Source: Eledone cirrhosa
Lineage: Eukaryota
Length of the DNA: 64,000 nucleotides
Assembly: GCA_964016885.1 (NCBI GenBank)
Contig: OZ024750.1
Coordinates: 20,336,001-20,400,000, forward strand
Direction of reading: 5' to 3'
A program made the translations under genes and the position numbers. The notes below the pieces were generated by a model that made no database searches, was not told where the DNA came from, and was given only the letters and a program-made list of their open reading frames with translations. Each line of letters starts with the position of its first letter. The first letter of the stretch is position 1. Of the stretch, positions 4,842 through 59,758 are shown piece by piece.

Positions 4842-4866
4842 CGTCTCTCTCTCTCTCTATATATAT
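4764..4866. repeat. (CT)n microsatellite
   Basis: Direct reading. Confidence 0.95.
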
Positions 4867-4941
4867 ACTGTTCAGATTGTAGTGTAACTTCTTAATATAT
4901 GCTAACACGAAACAAGCAAAACGGATAGAGGAAGTGTAAAG

Positions 4942-5007
<66 letters not shown>

Positions 5008-5098
5008 TATTAGCTTTACACTTTTACACTTCCTCTATCCGTTTTGCCTGTTTTGCGTTAGCATATATTTAAGAAGTTACACTACAATCAGAACAGTA
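4866..5098. repeat. ~80-bp inverted repeat flanking a (TA)n tract
   Basis: 4866-4946 is the imperfect reverse complement of 5009-5098; the right arm has a tandem tttacact duplication. Confidence 0.9.
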
Positions 5099-15810: not shown

Positions 15811-17582
15811 AATGAAATGACCAAAATCGAATGTCATCAAAGTATGTAATCCATTTATGAACGTTTCTCTGAATACAGTAAGATGTTTCATTATTTTCCT
15901 CCGTACAGATTTCTTCAGAATCCATTAAACGATATGGATTACATATTTAACATCGGCGTTCAGCTATCTCTAATTCACAAATTGTAAACAAGTTTAAAAT
16001 ACAGCTGGTAACTCAGTTACTCCAGTCCACTAAGGTCGCAGAAAGCAGATATACCTGTATTTGAAATGGCCACCTGTATCACATCAAATATCACATTGAA
16101 TCACACATTGAAATACGTTAAATGTATACGAGTCTGTAGAATGCTTAGCCATTTACACAAAACATTCTATTTTGCAGAGATTGGTAGATATTAACAGCTT
16201 TAGATACGAAGCACTACGATTGAATTTGGAGCTTTTTGAATATGAAGCGATCTTAAATAATCTGACATGCGGCGCCCAAATTTACATATGTTATTATCTG
16301 AAGAATATTAGAATGCTAAGTCATACCTCCAACTGTGAATCGAAATCAGTTACTATTCATTTAGGACCTCCCCTGCTTCAACAATATCCCTGCTACATAT
16401 GAATTAATGGGAATGTCATCATAAAGGTTTTGTATATATTTCTCATTCTGACACGAAGCAACGTATAAAGAAGACATAAATATATCAACTGTGTGTTTAT
16501 TAAATGTACACGAAAATGTCTATATTGCAGCAATTGGTTTGTGGGAGAACATGAAACACAACAACGCAATTATGTCCATATTGATTCCATAGCTGTTGCC
16601 GTAATGAATAAAGATTAAACGTTCCAGGAGAACGTAAATCGATGTAATACGAAATCTTTACAGCGAAATTTTATATATTGTGTCAGTTTTCCACATGGTC
16701 ATCGCATTCAGAAATGAAAGGATAGCACTTCCTTTTATAAACCACACTGACAACACTAATATTATCTCCCCTTAGATAAGATTCTCTGTCTCACTTTTTC
16801 TCTCTGTTTCTCTTTTTATTTTCTTATTTTCTTCGTGCATGCTATTTTTATGCTCTAGCCGCAAGTGCTGCGATAAAGGTAGTGTGTTCTCTTTCAATTC
16901 CATAACACATAAATGCGTTTATGTACGCAAATCTTTGTGCACCGATAACGTTACACAGCAAATGCCCGCCTGCATAAAAATAATTATCTATATTGCTGCA
17001 TATAACAAAAGATACATTACCTGATCAGTTAAGAAACTAAAGTTATTTCCAGAACTTTTGATATTCTCAGTTTAACGAAATTAATACCTATTAATATGAA
17101 AGATGCCATTAACCCTTTGTTATAGATTCTTTATTGTGACTATCAGGTTAAAGTTACATGCTTATAAATGGCGTGGTAAAGCCAAAGGCCATCGCTTTCT
17201 GGAAAAAGAATGGCTGCTCCTTTCATTTAAACAGTTAAATGTGTTACAACTAAATATTCTATATAAATGTTGCTTCTGGTCAAAAGTATATTGCACAAGA
17301 TCTGAATTTTCTGATGCACTTTTGGTCTTGAAATGTATTTCATATACACAACTTAGACTCATTATCATAAACTTACTAATGTTTGATATATGAACTACAT
17401 CATGTACGCGAATGCGTCTGAGTATTTTATTAAAGTTCTATAAAAAGATACATTGTATGAGTTGTCTCATACATATTTACATATGTAAGGTCTATCATAT
17501 CGTTTGAAATCGTATTACTTGCTATCGTTATTTTGTACATTCTCTGCCACTGGCTCATATCAATATATATATATATATATAT

Positions 17583-17806
17583 AGTAATAATAATAAATTT
17601 GAAGACTAAAATCCAAAGAGGGCTCGATAAGGATAAATATATATCAAATATATAAGAACCGTAGAGCAAATATTTATTAAAATAACAGATTAAAGTTTAA
17701 GCAAAGAATCGCATGCTTTCACCCTTAACGGGATCTTCAGAAGATCCCGTTAAGAGTGAAAGCAGCGATTCTTTGCTTAAACTTTGATCTGTTATTTTAA
17801 TAAATA
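17583..17806 (-). mobile_element. Fold-back element family E (tail + palindrome centred at 17739, hammerhead-like core)
   Basis: Palindrome ~17672-17806. Minus strand CTGAAGA-TCCCGTTAAGGGT-GAAA. Other full copies at 26605-26823 and 58882-59100. Confidence 0.8.
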
Positions 17807-19198: not shown

Positions 19199-19235
<37 letters not shown>

Positions 19236-19238
<3 letters not shown>

Positions 19239-19688
19239 GATATTAAATAAATGGAAACTATATTTATAAAACCATATTTATTTCATTATATATATTTCAG
19301 GGATATCATATTAACAATATGCTATGCCTTCCTCAGACAAAATACAATATAAACAGTTTTATAGATAAATAGATTTGACATACTGTACAACATCGACTTG
19401 TATTTGAAAAGTTGAATTGCCAATTCAACTTTTCAAATACAAGTCGATGTTGTACGGTATGTCAAATCTATTTATCTATAAAACTGTTTATATTGTATTT
19501 TGTCTGAGGAAGGCATAGCATATTGTTAATATGATATCCCTGAAATATATATAATGAAATAAATATGGTTTTATAAATATAGTTTCCATTTATTTAATAT
19601 CGTAAATATTATCCAAATACTTGTCGAGTGCTTTTATATCAGTTATAAATATTTACTAGTTGTAACCCAACAATTTAAATATAACTTT

Positions 19689-19690
<2 letters not shown>
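19236..19690 (+). mobile_element. Fold-back element family A: 184-bp near-perfect palindrome + tail, in (TA)n
   Basis: 19236-19419 vs 19421-19604, 1-nt spacer, one mismatch seen. Tail 19605-19690. Confidence 0.9.
19496..19561 (+). ncRNA. Minimal type I hammerhead ribozyme motif (mirror copy 19279-19344, minus strand)
   Basis: TATTTTGT-CTGAGGA-AGG..CATATT/AATATG..CCT-GAAA-TATATA-TA-ATGAAATA. Helices I and II pair and helix III is palindromic. Predicted cut after A19553. Confidence 0.8.
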
Positions 19691-21023: not shown

Positions 21024-21197
21024 GTATCGGTAGAGGGTCGGACGCCATGCTTTCCAGCATAGTTACGTCCCTTTATGATCTGAGTTCAAATCCCGCCGAG
21101 GTTGACTTTGCCTTTCATCCTTACGGGGTCGATAAAATAAAGTACCAGTAATGCACTGGGTAATTTGCTGGCCTTATGCCTAAAGTAGAAACAATTA
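21024..21197 (+). mobile_element. tRNA-derived SINE
   Basis: Core and tail match the family. Confidence 0.9.
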
Positions 21198-21225
21198 TTT
21201 AAGTTTTGGTCTTCTATATACTTAA

Positions 21226-21372
21226 ATAATTGTTTCTACTTTTGGCACAAGGCCAGCAATTATCCCTGTGTATTATTGGTACTTTATGTTATTGGACCCC
21301 ATAAGGATGAAAGACAAAGTTAGCCTCGGCGGGATTTGAAATTAGACCGTAAAGGACCGTAACTCTATGCTA
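21226..21372 (-). mobile_element. tRNA-derived SINE, inverted
   Basis: Reverse complement of the core; mirror of 21376-21511. Confidence 0.88.
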
Positions 21373-21375
21373 CAA

Positions 21376-21511
21376 AGTAGAATTACGATCCCTTACGGTT
21401 CAAATCCCGCCGGGGTTAACTTTGCTTTCATCCTTATGCGGTCGATAAAATAAAGTACCAGTAATACACAGGGATAATTGCTGGCCTTGTGCCAAAAGTA
21501 GAAACAATTAT
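21376..21511 (+). mobile_element. tRNA-derived SINE, partial
   Basis: gttcaaatcccgcc core and gtagaaacaatt tail. Confidence 0.88.
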
Positions 21512-21992
21512 TTAAGTATATAGAAGATCGAGAATATTCTCGACAGAATCTGGAATCATGATGCAGAGAATGGGAACCACTCTACTTCCCGTTGAAATAA
21601 AGCTGCTAAATCATCTAATTTTGTCTGGATATGGTAACTTTCCATTTCAATTTAAAATATCCTCTTCTGATTCTGTGTGCTAATGGTGCTTACGCACCCA
21701 CAATTTGATATAACAATAAGCATGTTTTATCATTATACCTATCTATATATCTATTCATATTCTGATGGTAACATTTTCAAAAAATCTGCTATGTAGGAGA
21801 CGTTATTTTGCTTTCATTTCCTCATACCTTATCCATTTCTTTCATCTCCTTAATTTTTTTCCTCTTCTGAATTTACTAACAATTCTTCCCTTCCTGTTCT
21901 TCTTAGATTATCTGCTGTTAGGCTGAGAGAAGCGAGAGCCTGCGTGTGAGAAATAGTCTGTGCGAGAGAGAGGGAGTGTGTGTTTGTTTGTA

Positions 21993-25161: not shown

Positions 25162-26151
25162 GATTTCTTTTATTTGCCACTAGGGCATCAAAAGTGGGAC
25201 AAGTACAAAGGGGGGAGTTTACACAAAAAGGCGTCCTCAATAAGGAGGAGGCAATAACAAAATATAAAAATAAAATAAGATATAACAAAAAATAAAATTT
25301 TTAACAAAATCCTCAATAGAGAGGAGGCGCCTTGGGGGGTCGCACACACCCCCGAAAAAAGTGTGCAACCCTTCTCCTCAGGAGCACAGAGAAGGGGTGC
25401 TCCCTTGGTCTTTCATCTTCCTCACCTATAGTCTGATGTAGAGTGAAGGCCCATTCACACAGGCCATTCTCGCCACTTTCACCCATCTTTCATAGAAACG
25501 GCTGGGGTGCAGCACCTCTCTCTCCATCCTGATCCTTCTTCCGAAATGATATCGGAAGAAACGGACCAGTTGTTGGCCAGAGAGAAAGGTGCCCGACCTC
25601 AGTCCTTTCAGACGCGTCCACCATACAACCTCTTTCGCCATGGCTATTACGCACAGAAACACCGCCTCTGCTTCATCTTTGAAGGGGGGAGGCGGCTTGA
25701 TCATTACAATAGACTCGGTGGTCAACCGGATCGGTCCCACCCTTGACAGCAGTTGTTCGACATAGCCCCACAGATCGGCTACGCCCGAGCAGTGTACTAA
25801 TGCGTGTGCAACGGTTTCCTCGTCGCACACGCATCTGGGACAGATCTTTTTGGCGGGGTCCCTACCCGGGCGCCCGTGTCTGTAGAGCCTTTCTCGAACG
25901 GGTAAAGCCCCTCGGTAGCACTGCCAGGCCAGGGACTTCTGGAAGTTGTCCATAGGTCCCGGGCTGAATGTCCTACCGAACAGGCTGGCCAGTTCGTCCT
26001 CCTCCATGTCTAGGGCTTCTCCGAGGGCGTCGTCGCACCTGCTGCGTACCAGCCCTCTATAGAATGTTGCGGTGGAGTCTCCACTGATAACCGGATCCGC
26101 CTGCCAGAGGGCGGTGAGCGCCTGGGCACACTCAGTGTGCCAGGCGCCCAG
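25162..26151 (-). mobile_element. 5'-truncated Tx1/L1-clade LINE (ORF2 C-terminus + 3'UTR) inserted in (TA)n
   Basis: GC-rich island. Open frame with CPRCVCDEETVAHALVHC (zf-RVT CCHC). AATAAA near the 3' end; TA repeats on both sides. Confidence 0.88.
25426..26151 (-). CDS. Partial LINE ORF2 C-terminus with zf-RVT zinc knuckle (no true start)
   Basis: About 241 uninterrupted codons with LPVRERL..CPRC..EETVAHALVHC..W motif. The ORF-track start lies beyond the flanking TA repeat. Confidence 0.8.
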   Translation of the reverse strand: MGAWHTECAQALTALWQADPVISGDSTATFYRGLVRSRCDDALGEALDMEEDELASLFGRTFSPGPMDNFQKSLAWQCYRGALPVRERLYRHGRPGRDPAKKICPRCVCDEETVAHALVHCSGVADLWGYVEQLLSRVGPIRLTTESIVMIKPPPPFKDEAEAVFLCVIAMAKEVVWWTRLKGLRSGTFLSGQQLVRFFRYHFGRRIRMEREVLHPSRFYERWVKVARMACVNGPSLYIRL

Positions 26152-26408
26152 TATATATATATATATAGGCAAAATGATTAATGAAAAAGTTACAAGCCAT
26201 TAAAACATATCTTTATGAAGCTTGTAACTCTTTCAACTCTTTCATTAATCATTGTGCCTATCACCCTCTATTTATCCTTGTACACTAAATATTAACCTCC
26301 TCTAACATTTAAACCTGATAACCCATGCATGGGGCACTTATGCACCCGCTGTTCTTTCTATCCTCTTTTACGATACTGTAACTTTATATATATATATATA
26401 TAGTAATA

Positions 26409-26590
26409 ATTGTTTCTACTTTTTGGCACAAGGCCAGCAATTACTCAGTGCATTACTGGTACTTTATTTTATCGACCCGGTAAGGATGAAAGGCAAAGTC
26501 AACCTCAGGGGGATTTGAACTCAGATCGTTGAGGCACGTAACTATGCTGGAAAGCATGGCATCCGACACTCTACCGATACTGCCAATCCA
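26409..26590 (-). mobile_element. tRNA-derived SINE, full length
   Basis: Reverse complement of A-box, B-box, core and tail. Confidence 0.92.
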
Positions 26591-26604
26591 TATATATATA
26601 TATA

Positions 26605-26823
26605 GTATTAATAATAAATTTGAAGACTAAAATCCAAAGAGGGCTCGATAAGGACAAATATATATCAGATATATAAGAACCGTAGAGCAAATATTTACTA
26701 AAATAACAGATTACATGTTAAGCAAAGAATCGATGCGTTCACTCTTAACGGGATCTTCTGAAGATCTGTTAAGGGTGAAAGCAGCGATTGTTTGCTTCAA
26801 CTTTAATCTGTTATTTCAATAAA
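26605..26823 (-). mobile_element. Fold-back element family E copy
   Basis: Collinear with 17583-17806; centre gatcttc-t-gaagatc at 26759. Confidence 0.85.
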
Positions 26824-26847
26824 TATATATATATATATATATAATAT

Positions 26848-27272
26848 AAGATCAAAAGATGGTTAAAGGAGTTCCATGTATTTTATTATGCGCATTTCAA
26901 AAACAAACATCATCATGCAATAATATTTGTGTTTTCATCAGATAAAACAGGAGAACATGATATGAAGGCTAAAAAACACTTGTGGATAGTGCAGTTTTAA
27001 ATCAACATATCAACATATATGTTGATTTAAAACTGCACTATCCACAAGTGTTTTTTAGCCTTCATATCATGTTCTCCTGTTTTATCTGATGAAAACACAA
27101 ATATTATTGCATGATGATGTTTGTTTTTGAAATGCGCATAATAAAATACATGGAACTCCTTTAACCATCTTTTGATCTTCTATTATGTATACTCCAGTCC
27201 TACAAACTGTAGAGTGCTTCTTATCCGATATCTGCATTGCTTTATTGTACTACAATAAAACTCACCTCCTAC

Positions 27273-27273
<1 letters not shown>
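26848..27273 (+). mobile_element. Fold-back element family B: ~163-bp perfect palindrome + tail, in (TA)n
   Basis: 26848-27010 vs ~27017-27179, no mismatch seen. Tail 27180-27273. Confidence 0.9.
27080..27146 (+). ncRNA. Minimal type I hammerhead ribozyme motif (mirror copy 26881-26947, minus strand)
   Basis: TTTTAT-CTGATGA-AAACACAAA...TTTGTTTTT-GAAA-TGCGCA-TA-ATAAAA. Helix I 6 bp, palindromic helix III ATGCGCAT. Predicted cut after A27140. Confidence 0.85.
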
Positions 27274-27337
<64 letters not shown>

Positions 27338-27725
27338 TTTTATATGTGTGTGTGTTTGCACTTGTGCGAAATGTAAACGAAATCAACAAAGCAAAAAGAA
27401 CAGTGAATTTGAATATATTAGATTAATGCTTTATATAGTAGGAACACTGTTTAAAGTGTTCAGTTGGGGAAAATGTTGGTCACAGGGTATCTCAGATATT
27501 AGAAATGCTTTGAAAGGGAGAAAAACACTGTATATTCCGAGTGGATATGTAAGTGTGTGTTTGTGTGTTTCTGTCTGTGTGTGCGTGAGTGGGTGCATGT
27601 GTGTTGGTGTGCTTGTCCGTCTCTGCTAATCTGAGAATGGATCTGTGGGACTTTAGATGTGTGTGCGTGCGTGCGTGAACAAATGCTGACCAAATTCCGG
27701 AGACATACCTATGTATGTGAAATTC

Positions 27726-27759
<34 letters not shown>

Positions 27760-28359
27760 AGCTTTATTTACGGTTCGTACACAATGTTCTGGCAGTGTTC
27801 TCGGGTAGGAATTCTATTAGGTATACTCTCATATTCTCTGATGTTCATATGGTACTGATGTCCTTATGACATTCTAAAGACACTGTCGTGTTACATGACT
27901 TGCCCAGTGAAACTTAAACATGTTTTATCCTACCCCACGCTAAGTTCTTAAACACCCGTTATTTTCCAGGGACATACAGAGACAGATAGATATAGAGAGA
28001 GAGAGAAAGGGAAAGAGAGACATAGAGAGATAAGGAGATAGTGAGGCAGAGAAAAAGGAAGATAGAGTTAGAAAGATTGCGAGAGAAAGAAACATATAGT
28101 GAGTAATGAGTTAATCACATTGAGGAGGAAATGACAGTGGTAGTTTAATTGTCAAACAGGAAATACCGAAAGGTAAGGTTAGCATTTGAACTGAAACAAG
28201 AAACTCTATGCTAACTGATAACATGTTATACATGCACGCATGAACCAAAAAATAATGAAGCTCTTTTGTTGAAATGTATTTACATTTTTACTGTGTATCT
28301 CATGTTTCGCAGCAGGCTGGCTCAAGTTCACCAATCAAGGCTATGGAAATAACTTCATT

Positions 28360-28628
28360 ATTACGGGGTCGATAAAAATAAAGTACCAGTAATGCACTGG
28401 TTAATTGGTGGCCTTGTGCCTAAAGTAGAAACAACTATTACTATGGTGGATTGGCAGGATCGGTAGAGGGTCAGACGCCATGCTTTGCAGCACAGTTAAT
28501 TCCCTTTACGAACTGAGTTCAAATCCCGCCGAGGTTAAGTTTGCCTTTCATCCTTACGGGGTCGATAAAATAAAGTACCAGTACTGTACTGGGTAATTTC
28601 TGGCCTTGTGCCAAAAGTAGAAACAATT
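28360..28628 (+). mobile_element. Tandem SINEs (3' fragment 28360-28438 + full copy 28445-28628)
   Basis: Two successive core/tail matches. Confidence 0.9.
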
Positions 28629-28861
28629 ATTAATATGCTTTTTGGACTATTTCAACAAAATATGTTTGATTGTGTGTGAATCAGCAGTCTAAAGAGCAGA
28701 TCAATAATTGAATCATGTCAATAATTTGTGTGGATGACATTGAGCCAATTATCTGCTAAAGATGCGTGACATATCGATACACAATAAGAAAACTAAATGC
28801 ACGTAAACGAAAGTGCATAGTCATTCTTAATATATAAAGTGTGTCGGCGCATCTATTGCTG

Positions 28862-28921
<60 letters not shown>

Positions 28922-29205
28922 AGAGAGGGAGAGAGAGATATAGTGCTAGATATGTATGTGTGTGTCTTTGTAGATATACGCATGCATACATACATGCATA
29001 CCTACATACTTTCATACAGTTACATAAATACAACGATAGTGCAACATAGTCTAAAATTATCAATGTATATATACTCATGTGTGAGGAAATAGGTTACTTG
29101 TTTGTCTGATAGATTTTCAGTAAGTTTTAAAATGAAGTCTTTTGAACATTTTCCACAAATATTTGATGTATATATTGTATAATCATTATACTGTTTTTCA
29201 GTATG

Positions 29206-29393
29206 GGCGGTGGATTGGCAGTATCCGTAGAGGTTCGGACGCCATGCTTTGACGCATAGAGTTACGGCCCTTGCCATTCTGAGTTCAAATCCCGCCGAGG
29301 TTAACTTTGCCTTTCATCCTTACGGGGTCGATAAAATAAAGTGCCAGTAATGTACTGGGAATTTCTGGCCTTGTGCCAATAGTAGAAACAATT
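29206..29393 (+). mobile_element. tRNA-derived SINE, full length
   Basis: A-box, B-box, core and tail all present. Confidence 0.92.
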
Positions 29394-29758
29394 ATACTGT
29401 TTTTCAACAAGGTCGTCTTGTTTTCAATTTAAGAATATAAAAGGGAGGCAGTATTTACTTATTCTTGTAAACTAGCATATTTAAGACTTCAAATATATGT
29501 TTACATTTGTTTCAGTGTGAGAGTAACCAATAACAATTTTCCCAAATTGAATTTTGGTTAAATTTCTAGAAAATTGATATTTACATGGAAACTGTTTCTA
29601 ATATAAGGAAAAGAGTCATTCATAAAATGCATTATTTACATAAAACAGACAAATTCTCTATGAGTTTTAGGTATTGACTATATATCACTTACTTAGTGTC
29701 GGCAAAAACAAACGGAAGCAACTGACAGATGTTTCTCGTTTGTTAACGGTTATATATA

Positions 29759-29815
<57 letters not shown>

Positions 29816-29816
<1 letters not shown>

Positions 29817-30158
29817 CTTCAAAATGTTAACAAATATAGACATTTGTGTGATCAAGTATGTTTTATTAGACATATTTCAGAGGTACTGAGCTATCTTCAA
29901 CAGTATGTCCTCATCAGATACAATAAGATGATGCATGACATACCCTGACTTAGTAGATGGTTAAGATTCAGTCATCGTAGTGAATAATATATGACAAAAC
30001 ACACGCACCCTCTGCAGTATATGTAAATGTTTTCATGTCTCAATCTTAAGGTATATAAATATTGAGTTTTGTCATATCTTATTCATTACCATGACTGAAT
30101 CTTCCAATCTATTGTAAAACTCATTCTTTGATTTATTCATTGAACCTTGTTTAACCTT

Positions 30159-30161
<3 letters not shown>
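29816..30161. mobile_element. Family C copy (inverted arm with hammerhead 29861-29925 on minus strand + tail)
   Basis: 29816-29980 matches 35237-35403; 30095-30161 matches the tail at 35600-35667. Confidence 0.8.
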
Positions 30162-33937: not shown

Positions 33938-35081
33938 ATATATAGGCATATATATGTATGTATGAGTGTATGTATGTATATTTGTGTGTATGTGTGTGTG
34001 TCTATATGTGTATTGTGTGTTCAAGTGGACTTGAGAAATACCAAACCCAGCATGAATTCATTGAAGTGTGTCAGCCAGAGGGTAACGGATGGACAGCCTG
34101 ACTGCAACTATTGGCCAGAATTTATGATGACGTGGAAAAACAACAGCCAACAGCAGGACAAGCGAGGAAGATGTTTTTTGACGCTAACACCCAGTGAGAA
34201 ATTTTGGTCCGGAATTATTGCCTGTGTCCGAAGAACGTTCAGTTTCCAGAATCAGAGAGATTCATAGAATGATCGTGTCACGAGCTTTCTGCCGGCGAAA
34301 CAATTGTAACACACAATAAATTGAGTCCAGATGCATCACTGATTTTTCGTTTTATATCATATATATATATATATTCACGTGTATATCTATAGTGTCAACT
34401 AGAACTTGAGATTACCTTCTCTTTTTCTCTTTCTTTCTTTTTCCGGAAAGTACATATATACTTATGTATTTTTGAAGTTTTATCTCAGGTTTTGGTATAT
34501 CGACCTAAGAATTTTTAAACTAAGCATATGGTCATTATTTTTCACACATTATATATCTATGTCCCATTCATGAATATTGATATTTACATTATAATACCCA
34601 ATTGATAATTCAAATTGATAGGACATAACGTAAAGTTGTAAATCTGCCATCCTTCTCTCTAGATATAGCTCTTTCTTCCCCTCCCTCTATACATGATGAA
34701 ATTTAAGTATCGCTGTTTTCTCTTTATTTATTTTTTTTATTTCTCTCCGTCTCCTTAACACTATAACTAAATAAATAATTAAATAAATAATTACTCCCAC
34801 CCTCCTAAATCTCTCAATTTGTATGATGAATTATTATTATTCATCTGTTGCCTCAGCTGCCTCTCATTTTTCACCCCCTCACTATTTTTCTCTCTCCCAT
34901 ATCTCTCTCTATCTCTCTCTGTTTTTCTTTACATACATTTATTCCTTCTCTCCGTCTTTCTTTCTAACTGTGCTTAACACTAAATATTTACAAACATTTC
35001 ACTACCAAACCAACTTTTTAAATGGAAGTTGATCAATATTTATGGTACGTCAAATTTATTTATAAAACTGCTTATATATTA

Positions 35082-35147
35082 TATTTTATCTGAAGAAGGC
35101 ATGCCATATTTTTAATATGGCATCCCTGAAATATGTATAATGAAATA
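35082..35147 (+). ncRNA. Hammerhead ribozyme motif, family A second copy (arm 35040-35190)
   Basis: TATTTTAT-CTGAAGA-AGG-C-ATGCCATATT-ttt-AATATGGCAT-C-CCT-GAAA-TATGTA-TA-ATGAAATA; perfect 10-bp distal helix II. Confidence 0.85.
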
Positions 35148-35187
35148 AATATGGTTTTATAAATATAGTTTCCATTTGTTTAATATC

Positions 35188-35235
<48 letters not shown>

Positions 35236-35240
<5 letters not shown>

Positions 35241-35666
35241 TTCAAAATATTAACAAAATAGATATTCTTGTGATCAATTATATTTTATTATACATATTTC
35301 AGCGGTACCGAGTTAGTTCAACAATACTGTCCTCATCAGATAAAATAACATGATGCATGACATACCCTGACATAGTAGATGGTTAAGATTCAGTCATGGT
35401 AGTCTACTATGCCTGAATCTTAACCATCTACTATGTCAGGGTATGCCATACATCATCTTATTTTATCTGATGGGGACGTACTGTTGAACTTAACTCAGTA
35501 CCTCTGAAATATGTATAATAAAATATAATTGATCACAAGAATATCTATTTTGTTAATATTTTGAATTAATATTAATAACTGTGGAAAACATTTCTATGCT
35601 GAGTGCTTCCAATCTATTGTGAAACTCATTCTTTGATGTATTCATTGAACCTTGTTTAACCTTTAA

Positions 35667-41761: not shown

Positions 41762-41809
<48 letters not shown>

Positions 41810-41814
<5 letters not shown>

Positions 41815-42026
41815 TAAGAGGAATTCCAACTTTGTCTGATTTACTCGTTTTATTTACAATCCTTTAAAATATATAATGGTATTATAATGAAATAGTATGA
41901 TAGAATATTAAATTCTAAGTGTTAATTGAACAAGTACTTTCATGCTTTCGCAATCTTCAGGTTCATAATATGTGGTGACAGTCGAGTTTGCAATTTTCAA
42001 CTGTGAAAATTGCAAACTCGACTGTG
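41810..42026 (-). mobile_element. Family H copy with hammerhead (41927-41965, minus) and short terminal fold-back
   Basis: Reverse complement of 46082-46277; ends in the hairpin acagtcgagtttgcaattttca-actg-tgaaaattgcaaactcgactgt. Confidence 0.85.
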
Positions 42027-42062: not shown

Positions 42063-42509
42063 TATATATTGGTAAACGGAATAGAAAATGCTGACAAATT
42101 GTTCACAGTTGAAAAATGGTTTAATTAGGAATAAAAGAGTAATAGTGATTGTATGGGTTAGTATTCAGTTGTGGTTTTAAGTTTTTAAGTTTTTACCGGT
42201 TGCGCATTTCTAAATGCTTTTCAAAAATAATTTTGAGATTGAGTGTCCGTGCTATTTGCTCTGAGCAAACAGATCAGAGCAAACAGCACGGACACTCAAT
42301 CTCAAAATTATTTTTGAAAAACATTTAGAAATGCGCAACCGGTAAAAACTTAAAAAACTTAAAACCACAACTGAATACTAACCCATACAATCACTAATAC
42401 TCTTTTATTCCTAATTAAACCATTTTTCAACTGTGAACAATTTGTCAGCATTTTCTATTCCGTTTACCAATATATAATAACTCGTGTGTTACACCTCTAT
42501 TCTTTTAAC
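42063..42509 (+). mobile_element. Fold-back element family G: ~200-bp palindrome + tail
   Basis: 42063-42264 vs 42274-42476. Core TTGAAAA-(G/A)CATTT-ag-AAATGC-GCAA-CCGG-TA. Confidence 0.88.
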
Positions 42510-43614
42510 TATATATATATATATATATATATTCTAATTCTTACTTTCGACAAGACAATATAAATTACATTAAGTAAACATTTTCAGCATTCCGGAAAAG
42601 AAGCTGGTGTGTATTTCTGAAGCTGCCAACGTAGAAACAATACCTTAACCAATAAAATAAATTATAAGCATAGGCAAGAGCATGCAATTTAATGTGTGCT
42701 CCTAATTAACAACTGTACAGTACTATGTATTCAGGAATGGGCATTAATTAAATAACAATTACATTATTTAATAAATTTTAATTAAGGGAGGCATATTATA
42801 CAAAAACTGCTTGTATTACATATAAATATGTCGTATATTGTACGTTTGTTTAATATATTTCATTTTTATTTGTATAAACAACTGTAAAAAATATGGTGTA
42901 TTAATATACAAATATCTTCATTACCTTTAGGATCGGAAACAATATATCAATATAAAAGAAAGTTCTGTGTTTACAAAAATGGAATATTTATGTAGGCTTA
43001 CATATACTTTCAGAATAAAAAAATATATTTGTTTGGTAATTAAATAGTGTATTTCTTGAATGTATAAAGATAAGAAATCCCCACGCAAAAAAATAAACAG
43101 CGTTTTAATTGAACCTGTATAACTGCGAAAGTGACATATTTAAATATGAGTTGAAATAGAAATGATCATATTCTCGATCATAAATATTTGGCCCATGAAG
43201 TTTCTTTGCTCAGCGATGTGAGTTAATGTCACCCAAAGATAGCCGATTGTATCAGTAGAAAATATAGTCTTATATGGTGATCAATACTACTGACATTAAG
43301 TTGAAGCACTACCAAAGCTTTTGTAGTTAAATTCTCATTAGCCTCCTTCAATATGATAGCATTGTATCCCTTAACATTGGCATATTACATCGTAAATTTC
43401 ATACAGAGTATGGTGGAGCGGGGTGTATCATGTCAACACGAAGAGAAATAACACGTTCTGAATGTTTTCTTAATACTATCCATAAACACTCATGGTCTAT
43501 GGGCATTCACTCTTCTATTCATATTCATATGTGACGTGCGTTAATTTATCCTGCGTATTCAGTAGAGGTGAATTTGTAAAGTCATTAAATCACAGAGGTA
43601 AAGTTAGCTTTCAT

Positions 43615-45659: not shown

Positions 45660-46081
45660 TATAGATAGGTAAATATACACGGGTGTGTATGATTGTGTAT
45701 AGAAGATTATATTAATAAGAGGAATTCCAACTTTGTCTGATTTACTCGTTTTATTTACAATCCTTTAAAATATATATAATGGTATTATAATGAACAACAA
45801 CAACAACAACAATAATAATAATAATAAAAGTGATGTTGATGGTGATGATTAATAGAAAATGCTATTTTCATCATTTCAAAAAAGCAAAACAATTGATACG
45901 TTGGATATGACTATTGGTCGTTAGCATGCTCAACCAGCCGTGACGCTTAAACCAATCAGCTGTAGTAATTCAGTGAAACTACACACTGATTGGTCGAAAT
46001 ACAGTTTACAGGGCTTTGCATTCTGGAGCCACTTTTCTCTGTATAAAATGTATAAAAGGTAGGAAATTTACCCATCTCATT

Positions 46082-46273
46082 ACAGTTGAAAATTGCAAAC
46101 TCGACTGTCACCACATATCATGAACCTGAAGATTGCGAAAGCATGAAAGTACTTGTTCAATTAACACTTAGAATTTAATATTCTATCATACTATTTCATT
46201 ATAATACCATTATATATATTTTAAAGGATTGTAAATAAAACGAGTAAATCAGACAAAGTTGGAATTCCTCTTA

Positions 46274-46277
<4 letters not shown>
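46082..46277 (+). mobile_element. Family H element
   Basis: Copies at 41810-42026(-), 45714-45793(-, tail only) and 59551-59758(-). Tail ends abut or lie near TA repeats. Confidence 0.85.
46121..46159 (+). ncRNA. 39-nt minimal hammerhead motif (family H)
   Basis: TGAAC-CTGAAGA-T-TGC-GAAA-GCA-T-GAAA-GTAC-TT-GTTCA: helix I 5 bp, GNRA-capped helix II, palindromic helix III AGTACT. Confidence 0.75.
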
Positions 46278-46317
<40 letters not shown>

Positions 46318-49420: not shown

Positions 49421-49478
<58 letters not shown>

Positions 49479-49479
49479 T

Positions 49480-49831
49480 AGAAAGTGAGGTTTTTTTTAC
49501 AAAATGAAAAATAACCGAGGTGTCCTACACGAGTGAAAGTATAAAGAAAAAGAGATGAAATCGAAAATGCAACTGGAGTCTTATTTTTTTTAAAAATATA
49601 TATATTTATTTGGTTCCTTTACCGGTTTCGCAGTTCTTCTGCTTTTCAAAAGGTGAGTTGAGATGGAGGGTCTGTGGATTTTCTCACAGATGTGAGAAAA
49701 ACAACAGACCCTCCATCTCAACTCACCTTTTGAAAAGCAGAAGAACTGCGAAAACGGTAAAGGAACCAAATAAATATATATATTTTAAAAAAAATAAGAC
49801 TCCAGTTGCATTTTCGATTTCATCTCTTTTT

Positions 49832-49838
<7 letters not shown>
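49480..49838 (-). mobile_element. Fold-back element family F: ~149-bp palindrome + tail on the left
   Basis: 49540-49688 vs 49691-49838; tail 49480-49539; (TA)n on both sides. Confidence 0.9.
49616..49653 (-). ncRNA. Variant (U3-A8) minimal hammerhead motif (mirror copy 49726-49763, plus strand)
   Basis: CCTT-TTGAAAA-GCAG-aagaa-CTGC-GAAA-CCGG-TA-AAGG: all three helices pair; GUA site. Confidence 0.78.
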
Positions 49839-58749: not shown

Positions 58750-58804
58750 ACTGCCTGAAGAGGTCACAGCCAACGATAGCTGTTACCGAAATATATATAG
58801 CAGT
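58750..58804 (+). ncRNA. Type I hammerhead ribozyme motif (family I)
   Basis: ACTGC-CTGAAGA-GGTcACAGC-caacgata-GCTGTtACC-GAAA-TATATA-TA-GCAGT. Canonical G10.1-C11.1 pair. Predicted cut after A58799. Confidence 0.85.
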
Positions 58805-58881
58805 ATATCTATAATTTATAATAAACGAAGCCAAATGTTATATACTTGACTTAATTATTTTATATATATATATATATATAT

Positions 58882-59096
58882 ATTTATTAAAATAACAGAT
58901 TAAAGTTTAAGCAAAGAATCGCTGCTTTCACCCTTAACGGGAGTTTCAGAAGATCCTGTTAAGGGTGAAATTAGCGATTATTTGCTTAAACTTTAATCTG
59001 TTATTTTAATAAATATTTGCTCTACGGTTCTTATATATTTGATATATATTTATCCTTATCGAGCCCTCTTTGGATTTTAGTCTTCAAATTTATTAT

Positions 59097-59100
<4 letters not shown>
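58882..59100 (+). mobile_element. Fold-back element family E copy
   Basis: Palindrome centred at 58948 plus the same tail as 17583-17670 (reverse complement). Confidence 0.85.
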
Positions 59101-59139
<39 letters not shown>

Positions 59140-59550
59140 TGTGTAGAAGCTGTAGAGATTCGTGTGTGTTTTTGTACCCCTTCGTATTTGAAAGAACATG
59201 CATTTTCATTACAGGTGGGGGAGGGGGGATATTATAATCAAACAGATTAATAAAATTTTAAAAAAGTACCTCCCTAACTAGAACACCTGTATAGTCAATG
59301 GTATGATTGTACTTATCCTGTATTCTCTATTATATATATAAATATATAGTCTTCAAATTTATTATTATTACTACATATATATATATATATGTGAAGTAAT
59401 TCCATCGGAAAAGTCCAGGAAAAAAAGAGTGCTCTATGTATGCAACAGAGCTTAATTATTATTATTATGTAATAAACAACATGTTATGTTGTTTATTACA
59501 TAATAATAATATATATATATATATGCAGATATATATATATATACATATAT

Positions 59551-59758
59551 ATTAATAAAAGGAATTCCAGCTTTGTCTGATTTACTCGTTTTATTTACAA
59601 TCCTTTAAATGTATAATGGTATTATAATCCTTTAATGTATAATCGTATTAGAATGAAATAGTATGGTACAATATTAAATGTTAAGTGTTAATAGAACAAG
59701 TACTTTTATGCTTTCGCAATCTTCAGGTTCAAATGTGGTGACAGTCAAGTTTTCAATG
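59551..59758 (-). mobile_element. Family H copy, degenerate (GAAA mutated to AAAA)
   Basis: Collinear with 41810-42000; internal duplication at ~59625-59650. Confidence 0.8.

Follow-up and report, generated by a model that had tools for sequence, protein, structure and literature searches.

A hammerhead-bearing palindrome in a (TA)n microsatellite, most likely two Penelope-like pseudo-LTR copies joined head to head

The locus lies in a window of 64 kb (the whole stretch of DNA that was analysed), which is AT-rich and full of microsatellites. Its core, 26848-27179 (332 bp), consists of two exactly complementary 163-bp arms with a 6-nt spacer between them. The first-pass annotation had described this core as a perfect 332-bp palindrome: the inner arms are indeed exact, but the palindrome is not strictly perfect, because the spacer is unpaired. 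The boundary set at 27179 arose because the C at 27180 breaks the arm match. This base is nearly private to the locus copy (the family base is A in 737,866 of 738,536 of the summed depth in sequencing run X1). With this position and a second mismatch at 27187 included, the full arms are 175 bp each (Table 1). On an alternative reading, the centre folds perfectly at 27017/27018 and contains in addition an 8-bp tandem duplication, next to which lies an 18-bp perfect palindrome (27009-27026). The 83-bp tail on the right has no mirror on the side of the left arm.

Contigs in which (TA)n follows 27191 (14 in X1 and one in X5) support the outer end of the left arm, for which 27191 is the mirror position. 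Since (TA)n also follows 27274 (15 contigs in X1 and one in X5), the family has both a tail-less and a tailed end. A target duplication is not readable inside a TA run. No open reading frame was found within the element in the three frames checked, and a 30-codon open frame running from 27185 through the tail was rejected as not significant in AT-rich DNA.

Table 1. Coordinates of the studied element, its flanks and the related elements in the 64-kb window
Feature	Position	Strand	Basis or remark
Left (TA)n target run	26824-26835		Sequence; also parts the element from the family D palindrome at 26605-26826
Inverted tail-less copy of the element end, 175 bp	26836-27010	-	Outer ~7 bp blend into the TA run
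Mirror type I hammerhead (predicted)	26881-26947	-	Descriptor scan
Unpaired centre, CAACAT	27011-27016		Putative junction scar; five of its letters are missing in six X1 contigs
Forward copy	27017-27191	+	Family members prefer 27017 as inner end (joints and loose ends)
Type I hammerhead (predicted), palindromic helix III (AUGCGCAU), dimer type	27080-27146	+	Descriptor and folding; predicted cut after A27140
One-sided tail, 83 bp	27192-27274	+	Holds GAGTGCTT at 27212-27219
Right (TA)n target run	27275-27336		Sequence
Family A	19231-19690; second (solo) copy 35011-35195		Hammerhead-bearing
Family C	35234-35665; second copy 29811-30160		Hammerhead-bearing
Family D palindromes	17582-17806, 26605-26826, 58880-59100		One shared centre (3/3)
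Family E	42063-42510		Looks like a decayed F by eye
Family F	49475-49838		U3-A8 core-variant hammerhead, palindromic ACCGGT helix III
Family G	41790-42025, 45708-46281, ~59550-59750		Hammerhead-bearing stumps beside (TA)n
Family H	58751-58803		Hammerhead-bearing stump beside (TA)n

As annotated earlier, a 6-bp helix I, a long helix II and a palindromic AUGCGCAU helix III are present in both arms, and each strand is predicted to carry a complete hammerhead with its full core and three helices, helix III being fully formed only in a dimer. In the forward copy, helix I (27080-27085/27141-27146) has six of six Watson-Crick pairs, the core letters CUGAUGA and GAAA occupy 27086-27092 and 27129-27132, and AUGCGCAU lies at 27132-27139. 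Helix II comprises three A-U pairs, a C-U mismatch and then 12 pairs (three of them G-U), and the pair at its foot is A-U, the usual G-C being absent. Within one molecule, at most 2 bp of helix III can close. The two opposite-strand motifs sit 133 bp apart.

The descriptor scan of the window returned eight such motifs and one U3-A8 variant, as against none in each of 40 resampled controls, a count that exceeds chance. Rfam gave no match at the gathering score in the whole window and no hammerhead family among the 57 matches at E ≤ 10 in 26700-27400; because the Rfam models do not score this motif, the hammerhead call is based on our own descriptor. Rfam matches of the miRNA type at lax E-values were rejected, as they merely reflect the long hairpin. 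Among the 16 listed variable sites, no variant of at least 5% falls inside 27080-27093 or 27129-27146, an absence with a chance of ~12% by hand calculation. Helix II covariation in a diverged subfamily (seven contigs), in which five of five stem positions still pair, was discounted because most transitions would preserve pairing.

Folding predictions agree with the earlier expectation that the ribozyme is sequestered in RNA that reads through the palindrome in either direction: the hairpin is predicted at ~-280 to -291 kcal/mol (-291 for the minus strand), and the probability of helix I in it is ~1e-60 or lower at both 37 °C and 20 °C. A co-transcriptional race between self-cleavage and pairing of the arms, which had also been proposed, is not borne out by the stepwise folds, which are equilibrium snapshots and not kinetics. 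From a left-hand start the arms are 93% paired at 27026 and 99% by 27045, the ribozyme begins at 27080, and closure of helix I is impossible before 27146; the central hairpin would therefore be closed ~55 nt before the ribozyme begins. The race is opposed as well by the dimer-type ribozyme, of which only one sense copy is available per strand. The antisense arm, said to be always made first, does come first in read-through RNA, but not in RNA started between the two hammerheads. For such RNAs, the helix I probability was 0.52-0.87 at four of the five tested starts and 0.07 at the fifth; RNA from 27017 gave ~0.85 with its end at 27162-27186 and ~0.01-0.02 once most of the tail was added. Closing 1-2 bp of intramolecular helix III costs 2-3 kcal/mol in these predictions. 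Two copies of the motif folded unconstrained as a double hammerhead (-43.9 vs 2 × -15.9 kcal/mol), and when four other motifs of the window were folded as pairs, those of families F and G joined via helix III and those of A and C formed other dimers.

At the locus, the ribozyme is thus predicted to be silent in any read-through RNA, the product being a long hairpin. That the locus is functional, with self-cleavage racing dsRNA formation and thereby tuning silencing or editing, is very improbable. Both cores are intact and free of variants of at least 5%, read-through RNA would be long dsRNA, and rotifer Penelope-like elements (PLEs) yield small RNAs (PMC3846280); but the hairpin is predicted to shut ahead of the ribozyme, a dimer is required with no same-strand partner, the hammerhead of an anole PLE is inactive without protein and dispensable in vitro (PMC11167929), and the copy belongs to a very numerous set and looks young, so that the intactness of its core needs no selection at the locus. 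Nothing suggests a selected switch rather than a by-product of insertion.

Part of the element is contained in 20 public runs from 15 studies; nine of the runs have at least half of the sampled words, and none of those listed is an RNA run, which counts neither for nor against expression. Contigs matching 26975-27284 numbered 4067 in X1, 25 in X5 and five in X4, and X1 is possibly the source sample. The family is very abundant in X1 but sparse and near-identical in X4 (133 nt with one difference, 96 nt with none) and X5, which suggests a recent species-specific burst, with contamination or low coverage as alternatives. Summed contig depth was ~2x over the outer arm relative to the tail; this is not a copy number and was left unused. 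An assembly or library fold-back artefact was also considered, given that no listed contig spans the centre with 31 letters on both sides and that X1 may be the source sample itself. It is extremely improbable: the arms differ at two places and are accompanied by the 8-bp duplication, both outer ends are family ends seen in two runs, X1 depth is present in all 29 bins including the centre, and several other families of the window are built alike.

Joints between inverted and forward copies were taken from the contigs; the figures refer to 15 listed of 42 joints and to 12 listed rows with letters between the copies, a further 84 loose ends lying outside the listing. All 15 joints exit the inverted arm at 27004-27010, and 11 of the 12 rows do so at 27004-27013. 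The inverted arm accordingly stops at the same inner point in 26 of the 27 listed joints, a proportion to be read with caution, since a reference with just 36 bp of left arm makes inverted arms more likely to be seen if they end close to the centre. Entry into the forward, tail-bearing copy is spread over 23 different places from 27075 to 27243 (27 listed rows), ten of the listed entry points falling inside the tail, and 0-4 letters are shared at the joints (microhomology). Because of the private C27180, entries at 27181/27182 are overcounted, and an apparent clustering at 27181 was rejected as an effect of that base. A single row (1/27) enters at 27141, the predicted cleavage site, which chance allows. 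Similar but non-palindromic letters run upstream past 27017 in 12 contigs of X1, one of X5 and one of X4 (205 nt). Of this upstream parent sequence 30 letters were read, and its motif is absent from the 64-kb window.

Because the inverted arm ends at a fixed point and the forward arm starts at 23 places, the palindrome was likely built anew at each insertion, and would be complete when both cDNAs reach the fixed end of the template. The contrary reading is that the palindrome moves in one piece as a fixed, non-autonomous unit, either MITE-like or a palindromic master copy. It would account for the centre shared by independent copies (family D 3/3 palindromic, family C 2/2), and the flanking TA could be mistaken for a target duplication of TA. 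It is quite improbable in view of the one-sided tail, the two alternative ends, the truncation series, the centre letters that differ between copies and the non-palindromic upstream parent; the variable junctions have already largely refuted it. The label MITE, which implies symmetric TIRs, a uniform size and no one-sided extension, was rejected on account of the tail and the truncation series.

The locus is, with high confidence, a single, heavily 5′-truncated PLE insertion into a (TA)n microsatellite, most likely in the form of two short hammerhead-bearing pseudo-LTR (pLTR) copies joined head to head. PLE insertions are described with an inverted 5′-truncated copy, a one-sided tail and a (TA)n bias (PMC8557442), and with head-to-head inverted pLTRs whose junctions hold 18- and 38-bp palindromes (PMC3846280). 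The features of such insertions recur here: an inverted 5′-truncated copy joined at its 5′ end (arms and joint series), a tail at one end (83 bp) with two alternative 3′ ends, variable 5′ truncation (23 entry points among the 27 listed rows), a type I hammerhead with palindromic helix III in the pLTR, and an AT-rich microsatellite target with (TA)n on both sides. The likeness to EN+ PLE insertions (PMC8557442; PMC3846280; PMC2377424) thus extends to the head-to-head copy, the junction palindrome, the tail on one arm, the AT-rich or (TA)n target and the hammerhead in the pLTR. The locus differs from them in being without an ORF and in that both copies end at one fixed inner point, and its tail is 83 bp long vs the 30-40 bp usually cited for PLEs. 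Counting against a PLE, no RT or GIY-YIG ORF of a parent was found among the 150 longest of the 303 window frames (Pfam). In the same set, no host exon or PLE domain scored above the cut-off, the sole match above it being zf-RVT in a 257-codon frame at 25429-26199 (minus strand); this frame appears to be a 3′ fragment of a non-LTR retrotransposon, unrelated to the palindrome element. Exact pattern searches for the parent element in metagenome contigs and viral contigs gave no matches.

Given a PLE insertion, a route with two primers is probable. The element protein would nick both strands of the TA run and prime a cDNA from each end, tailed and tail-less. Both cDNAs would grow inward as far as 27017 at most, a fixed template end taken to be the 5′ end of the copied RNA; this fixed end is probably the RNA start site, with a strong RT stop as the alternative. 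The cDNA ends would then be joined via 0-4 nt of microhomology, and where both cDNAs were full-length a near-perfect palindrome would result, the 8-bp duplication being a possible slip at the template end. In line with such a route, a purified anole PLE protein, a predicted dimer, cuts AT-rich DNA and extends both strands, and its reverse transcription starts at two RNA sites bounding the tail (PMC11167929). The hammerhead of the same element needs the protein to cut and is dispensable for insertion in vitro (PMC11167929). Taken as a whole (PLE insertion, head-to-head pLTR copies, two cDNAs), this account is fairly likely to be right.

The palindrome of a PLE could also have arisen by self-priming, in which one cDNA (or the antisense template) folds back and copies itself. 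Self-priming is the published reading of the junction palindromes in Adineta PLEs (PMC3846280), and it fits the 18-bp perfect palindrome at the junction, the identity of the inner 163 bp between the arms although the family varies at nine places there, and the arms of family A, which differ at 2/189 positions while another A copy is 84% alike. Identical arms are equally expected, though, if both cDNAs copy RNA from one source locus. Moreover, fold-back of a truncated cDNA yields equally truncated arms, whereas the listed joints pair complete with variably truncated arms, and a tail-less first cDNA cannot template the ten listed entries inside the tail. The unpaired central base toward the tail in family D is T in one copy and A in two (n = 3), a split that annealing of two cDNA ends and repair of one strand or the other would produce, with mutation as the alternative. 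Given the shortness of the contigs, the joints do not reveal whether their inverted arm has a tail, and self-priming therefore keeps a place as an unlikely alternative.

The fixed inner end invites a further, rather doubtful reading: 27017 may be the transcription start of an internal pLTR promoter, and every complete palindrome would then form an outward-facing pair of mini transcription units. Penelope transcription uses an internal promoter in the pLTR, upstream of the ORF start and the tail (PMC2377424). No clear downstream promoter motif was found near 27017 by eye. RNAs started at the centre would carry the sense hammerhead alone, escape the hairpin and possibly cleave as trans dimers via AUGCGCAU, an idea as doubtful as the start site itself. 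If the start-site reading is true, palindrome centres map the parent RNA start from DNA alone, and PLEs prime two cDNAs from the 5′-proximal copy of the start sites. In the literature covered, which was without most subscription papers and Repbase, no paper was found on the family or on palindrome centres that mark an RNA start.

Dual minimal hammerheads on opposite strands, 100-700 bp apart, were reported in 2014, among others from Schistosoma mansoni (PMC4209133), and hammerheads with a short palindromic helix III are described as inactive as monomers and low in activity as dimers (PMC4209133; reviewed in PMC6765202). The present pair resembles the metazoan PLE minimal hammerheads (PMC4209133) in being of type I, with a palindromic helix III, a long helix II and opposite-strand pairing. 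It differs from those of that source in its longer helix II (~15 bp), its helix I of 6-8 bp and the A-U, not G-C, at the base of helix II, and in being a predicted motif. The hammerhead appears to have been inherited as cargo, and any activity that it has would be that of a dimer formed through AUGCGCAU.

Among PLEs, those of the Hydra clade (PMC8557442) share the (TA)n target and a canonical hammerhead 30-45 nt before the tail-less end, although a (TA)n target with a hammerhead near the 3′ end is not unique to that clade. Proteins of the clade are marked by RWK, DKT and CxCX5C motifs and lack CCHH. By eye, the tail begins here with a CTC...GAG hairpin, as it does in three to four of six Hydra consensus sequences (PMC8557442); relative to shuffled sequences, tail hairpins show no added stability (z -0.92 for the tail hairpin of this element). 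Motifs of families A-H had no match in the supplementary file of Naiad, Chlamys and Hydra consensus sequences (PMC8557442), in which line breaks can hide matches, and GAGTGCTT occurs twice in that file, in unrelated context. The Hydra clade is the nearest guess, made by eye only.

Retrozymes are head-to-tail tandems with a hammerhead per unit, which allow dimer cleavage and circles (PMC7229834; bioRxiv 10.64898/2026.07.22.740005). The element resembles the animal non-LTR retrozymes of these sources in being short, non-coding, equipped with a type I hammerhead and probably PLE-derived, but differs in its head-to-head arrangement, in which each strand has a single sense motif. Assignment as a non-LTR retrozyme, which takes at least two head-to-tail units, was rejected, as the two inverted arms are the only matches to the unit within the window. 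For a squid genome, hammerheads and Penelope are only listed (PMC6962438).

The arrangement has already been described for PLEs, and the family is an ordinary further case. The single locus is a retroelement stump like very many others and matters little; the only useful lead that it gives is the fixed inner end. The family offers a test of how PLEs build inverted ends, for which self-priming (PMC3846280) competes with the extension of both strands from two start sites, as seen in vitro (PMC11167929). Joints of a complete inverted arm with a variably truncated forward arm, some of them inside the tail, favour two primers and are countable in a genome assembly. Such palindromes would also be a ready source of dsRNA wherever they are read through.

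Families A, C, D, E and F repeat this build: an inverted and a forward arm meet at a centre, a tail extends the forward arm alone, and (TA)n flanks the whole on both sides. Families A and C are built head to head with 85-93-bp tails; the solo A copy begins 5 nt from the A centre, and the C copies share their centre (2/2). GAGTGCTT is common to the tails of A, C and the studied element (family B) and occurs at just these three places in the window; a shared 8-mer among the tails was obtained in 41 of 20,000 shuffles. E and F are related palindromes, 75% alike near the centre.

Several further observations were made in the window. Close to its centre (~29969-30085), the second C copy appears to hold another insertion, which has inverted ends, and in family D the centre lies within the opening letters of what looks like a decayed hammerhead core (CTGAAGA and GAAA, with a short helix II). 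At 41978-42025, a copy of G combines a long arm with a very short inverted arm. ARAGORN found no tRNA in the sequence. A SINE-like repeat with tRNA-type A/B-box-like motifs (26400-26590, 21050-21527, 28350-28640 and 29185-29415) often stands beside (TA)n and in inverted clusters, and presumably resembles an octopus SINE with a Nin-type domain, a likeness that would make the host an animal, probably an octopus. At 4866-5098 the usual build is reversed, in an inverted repeat whose arms face outward from a (TA)n run in the middle.
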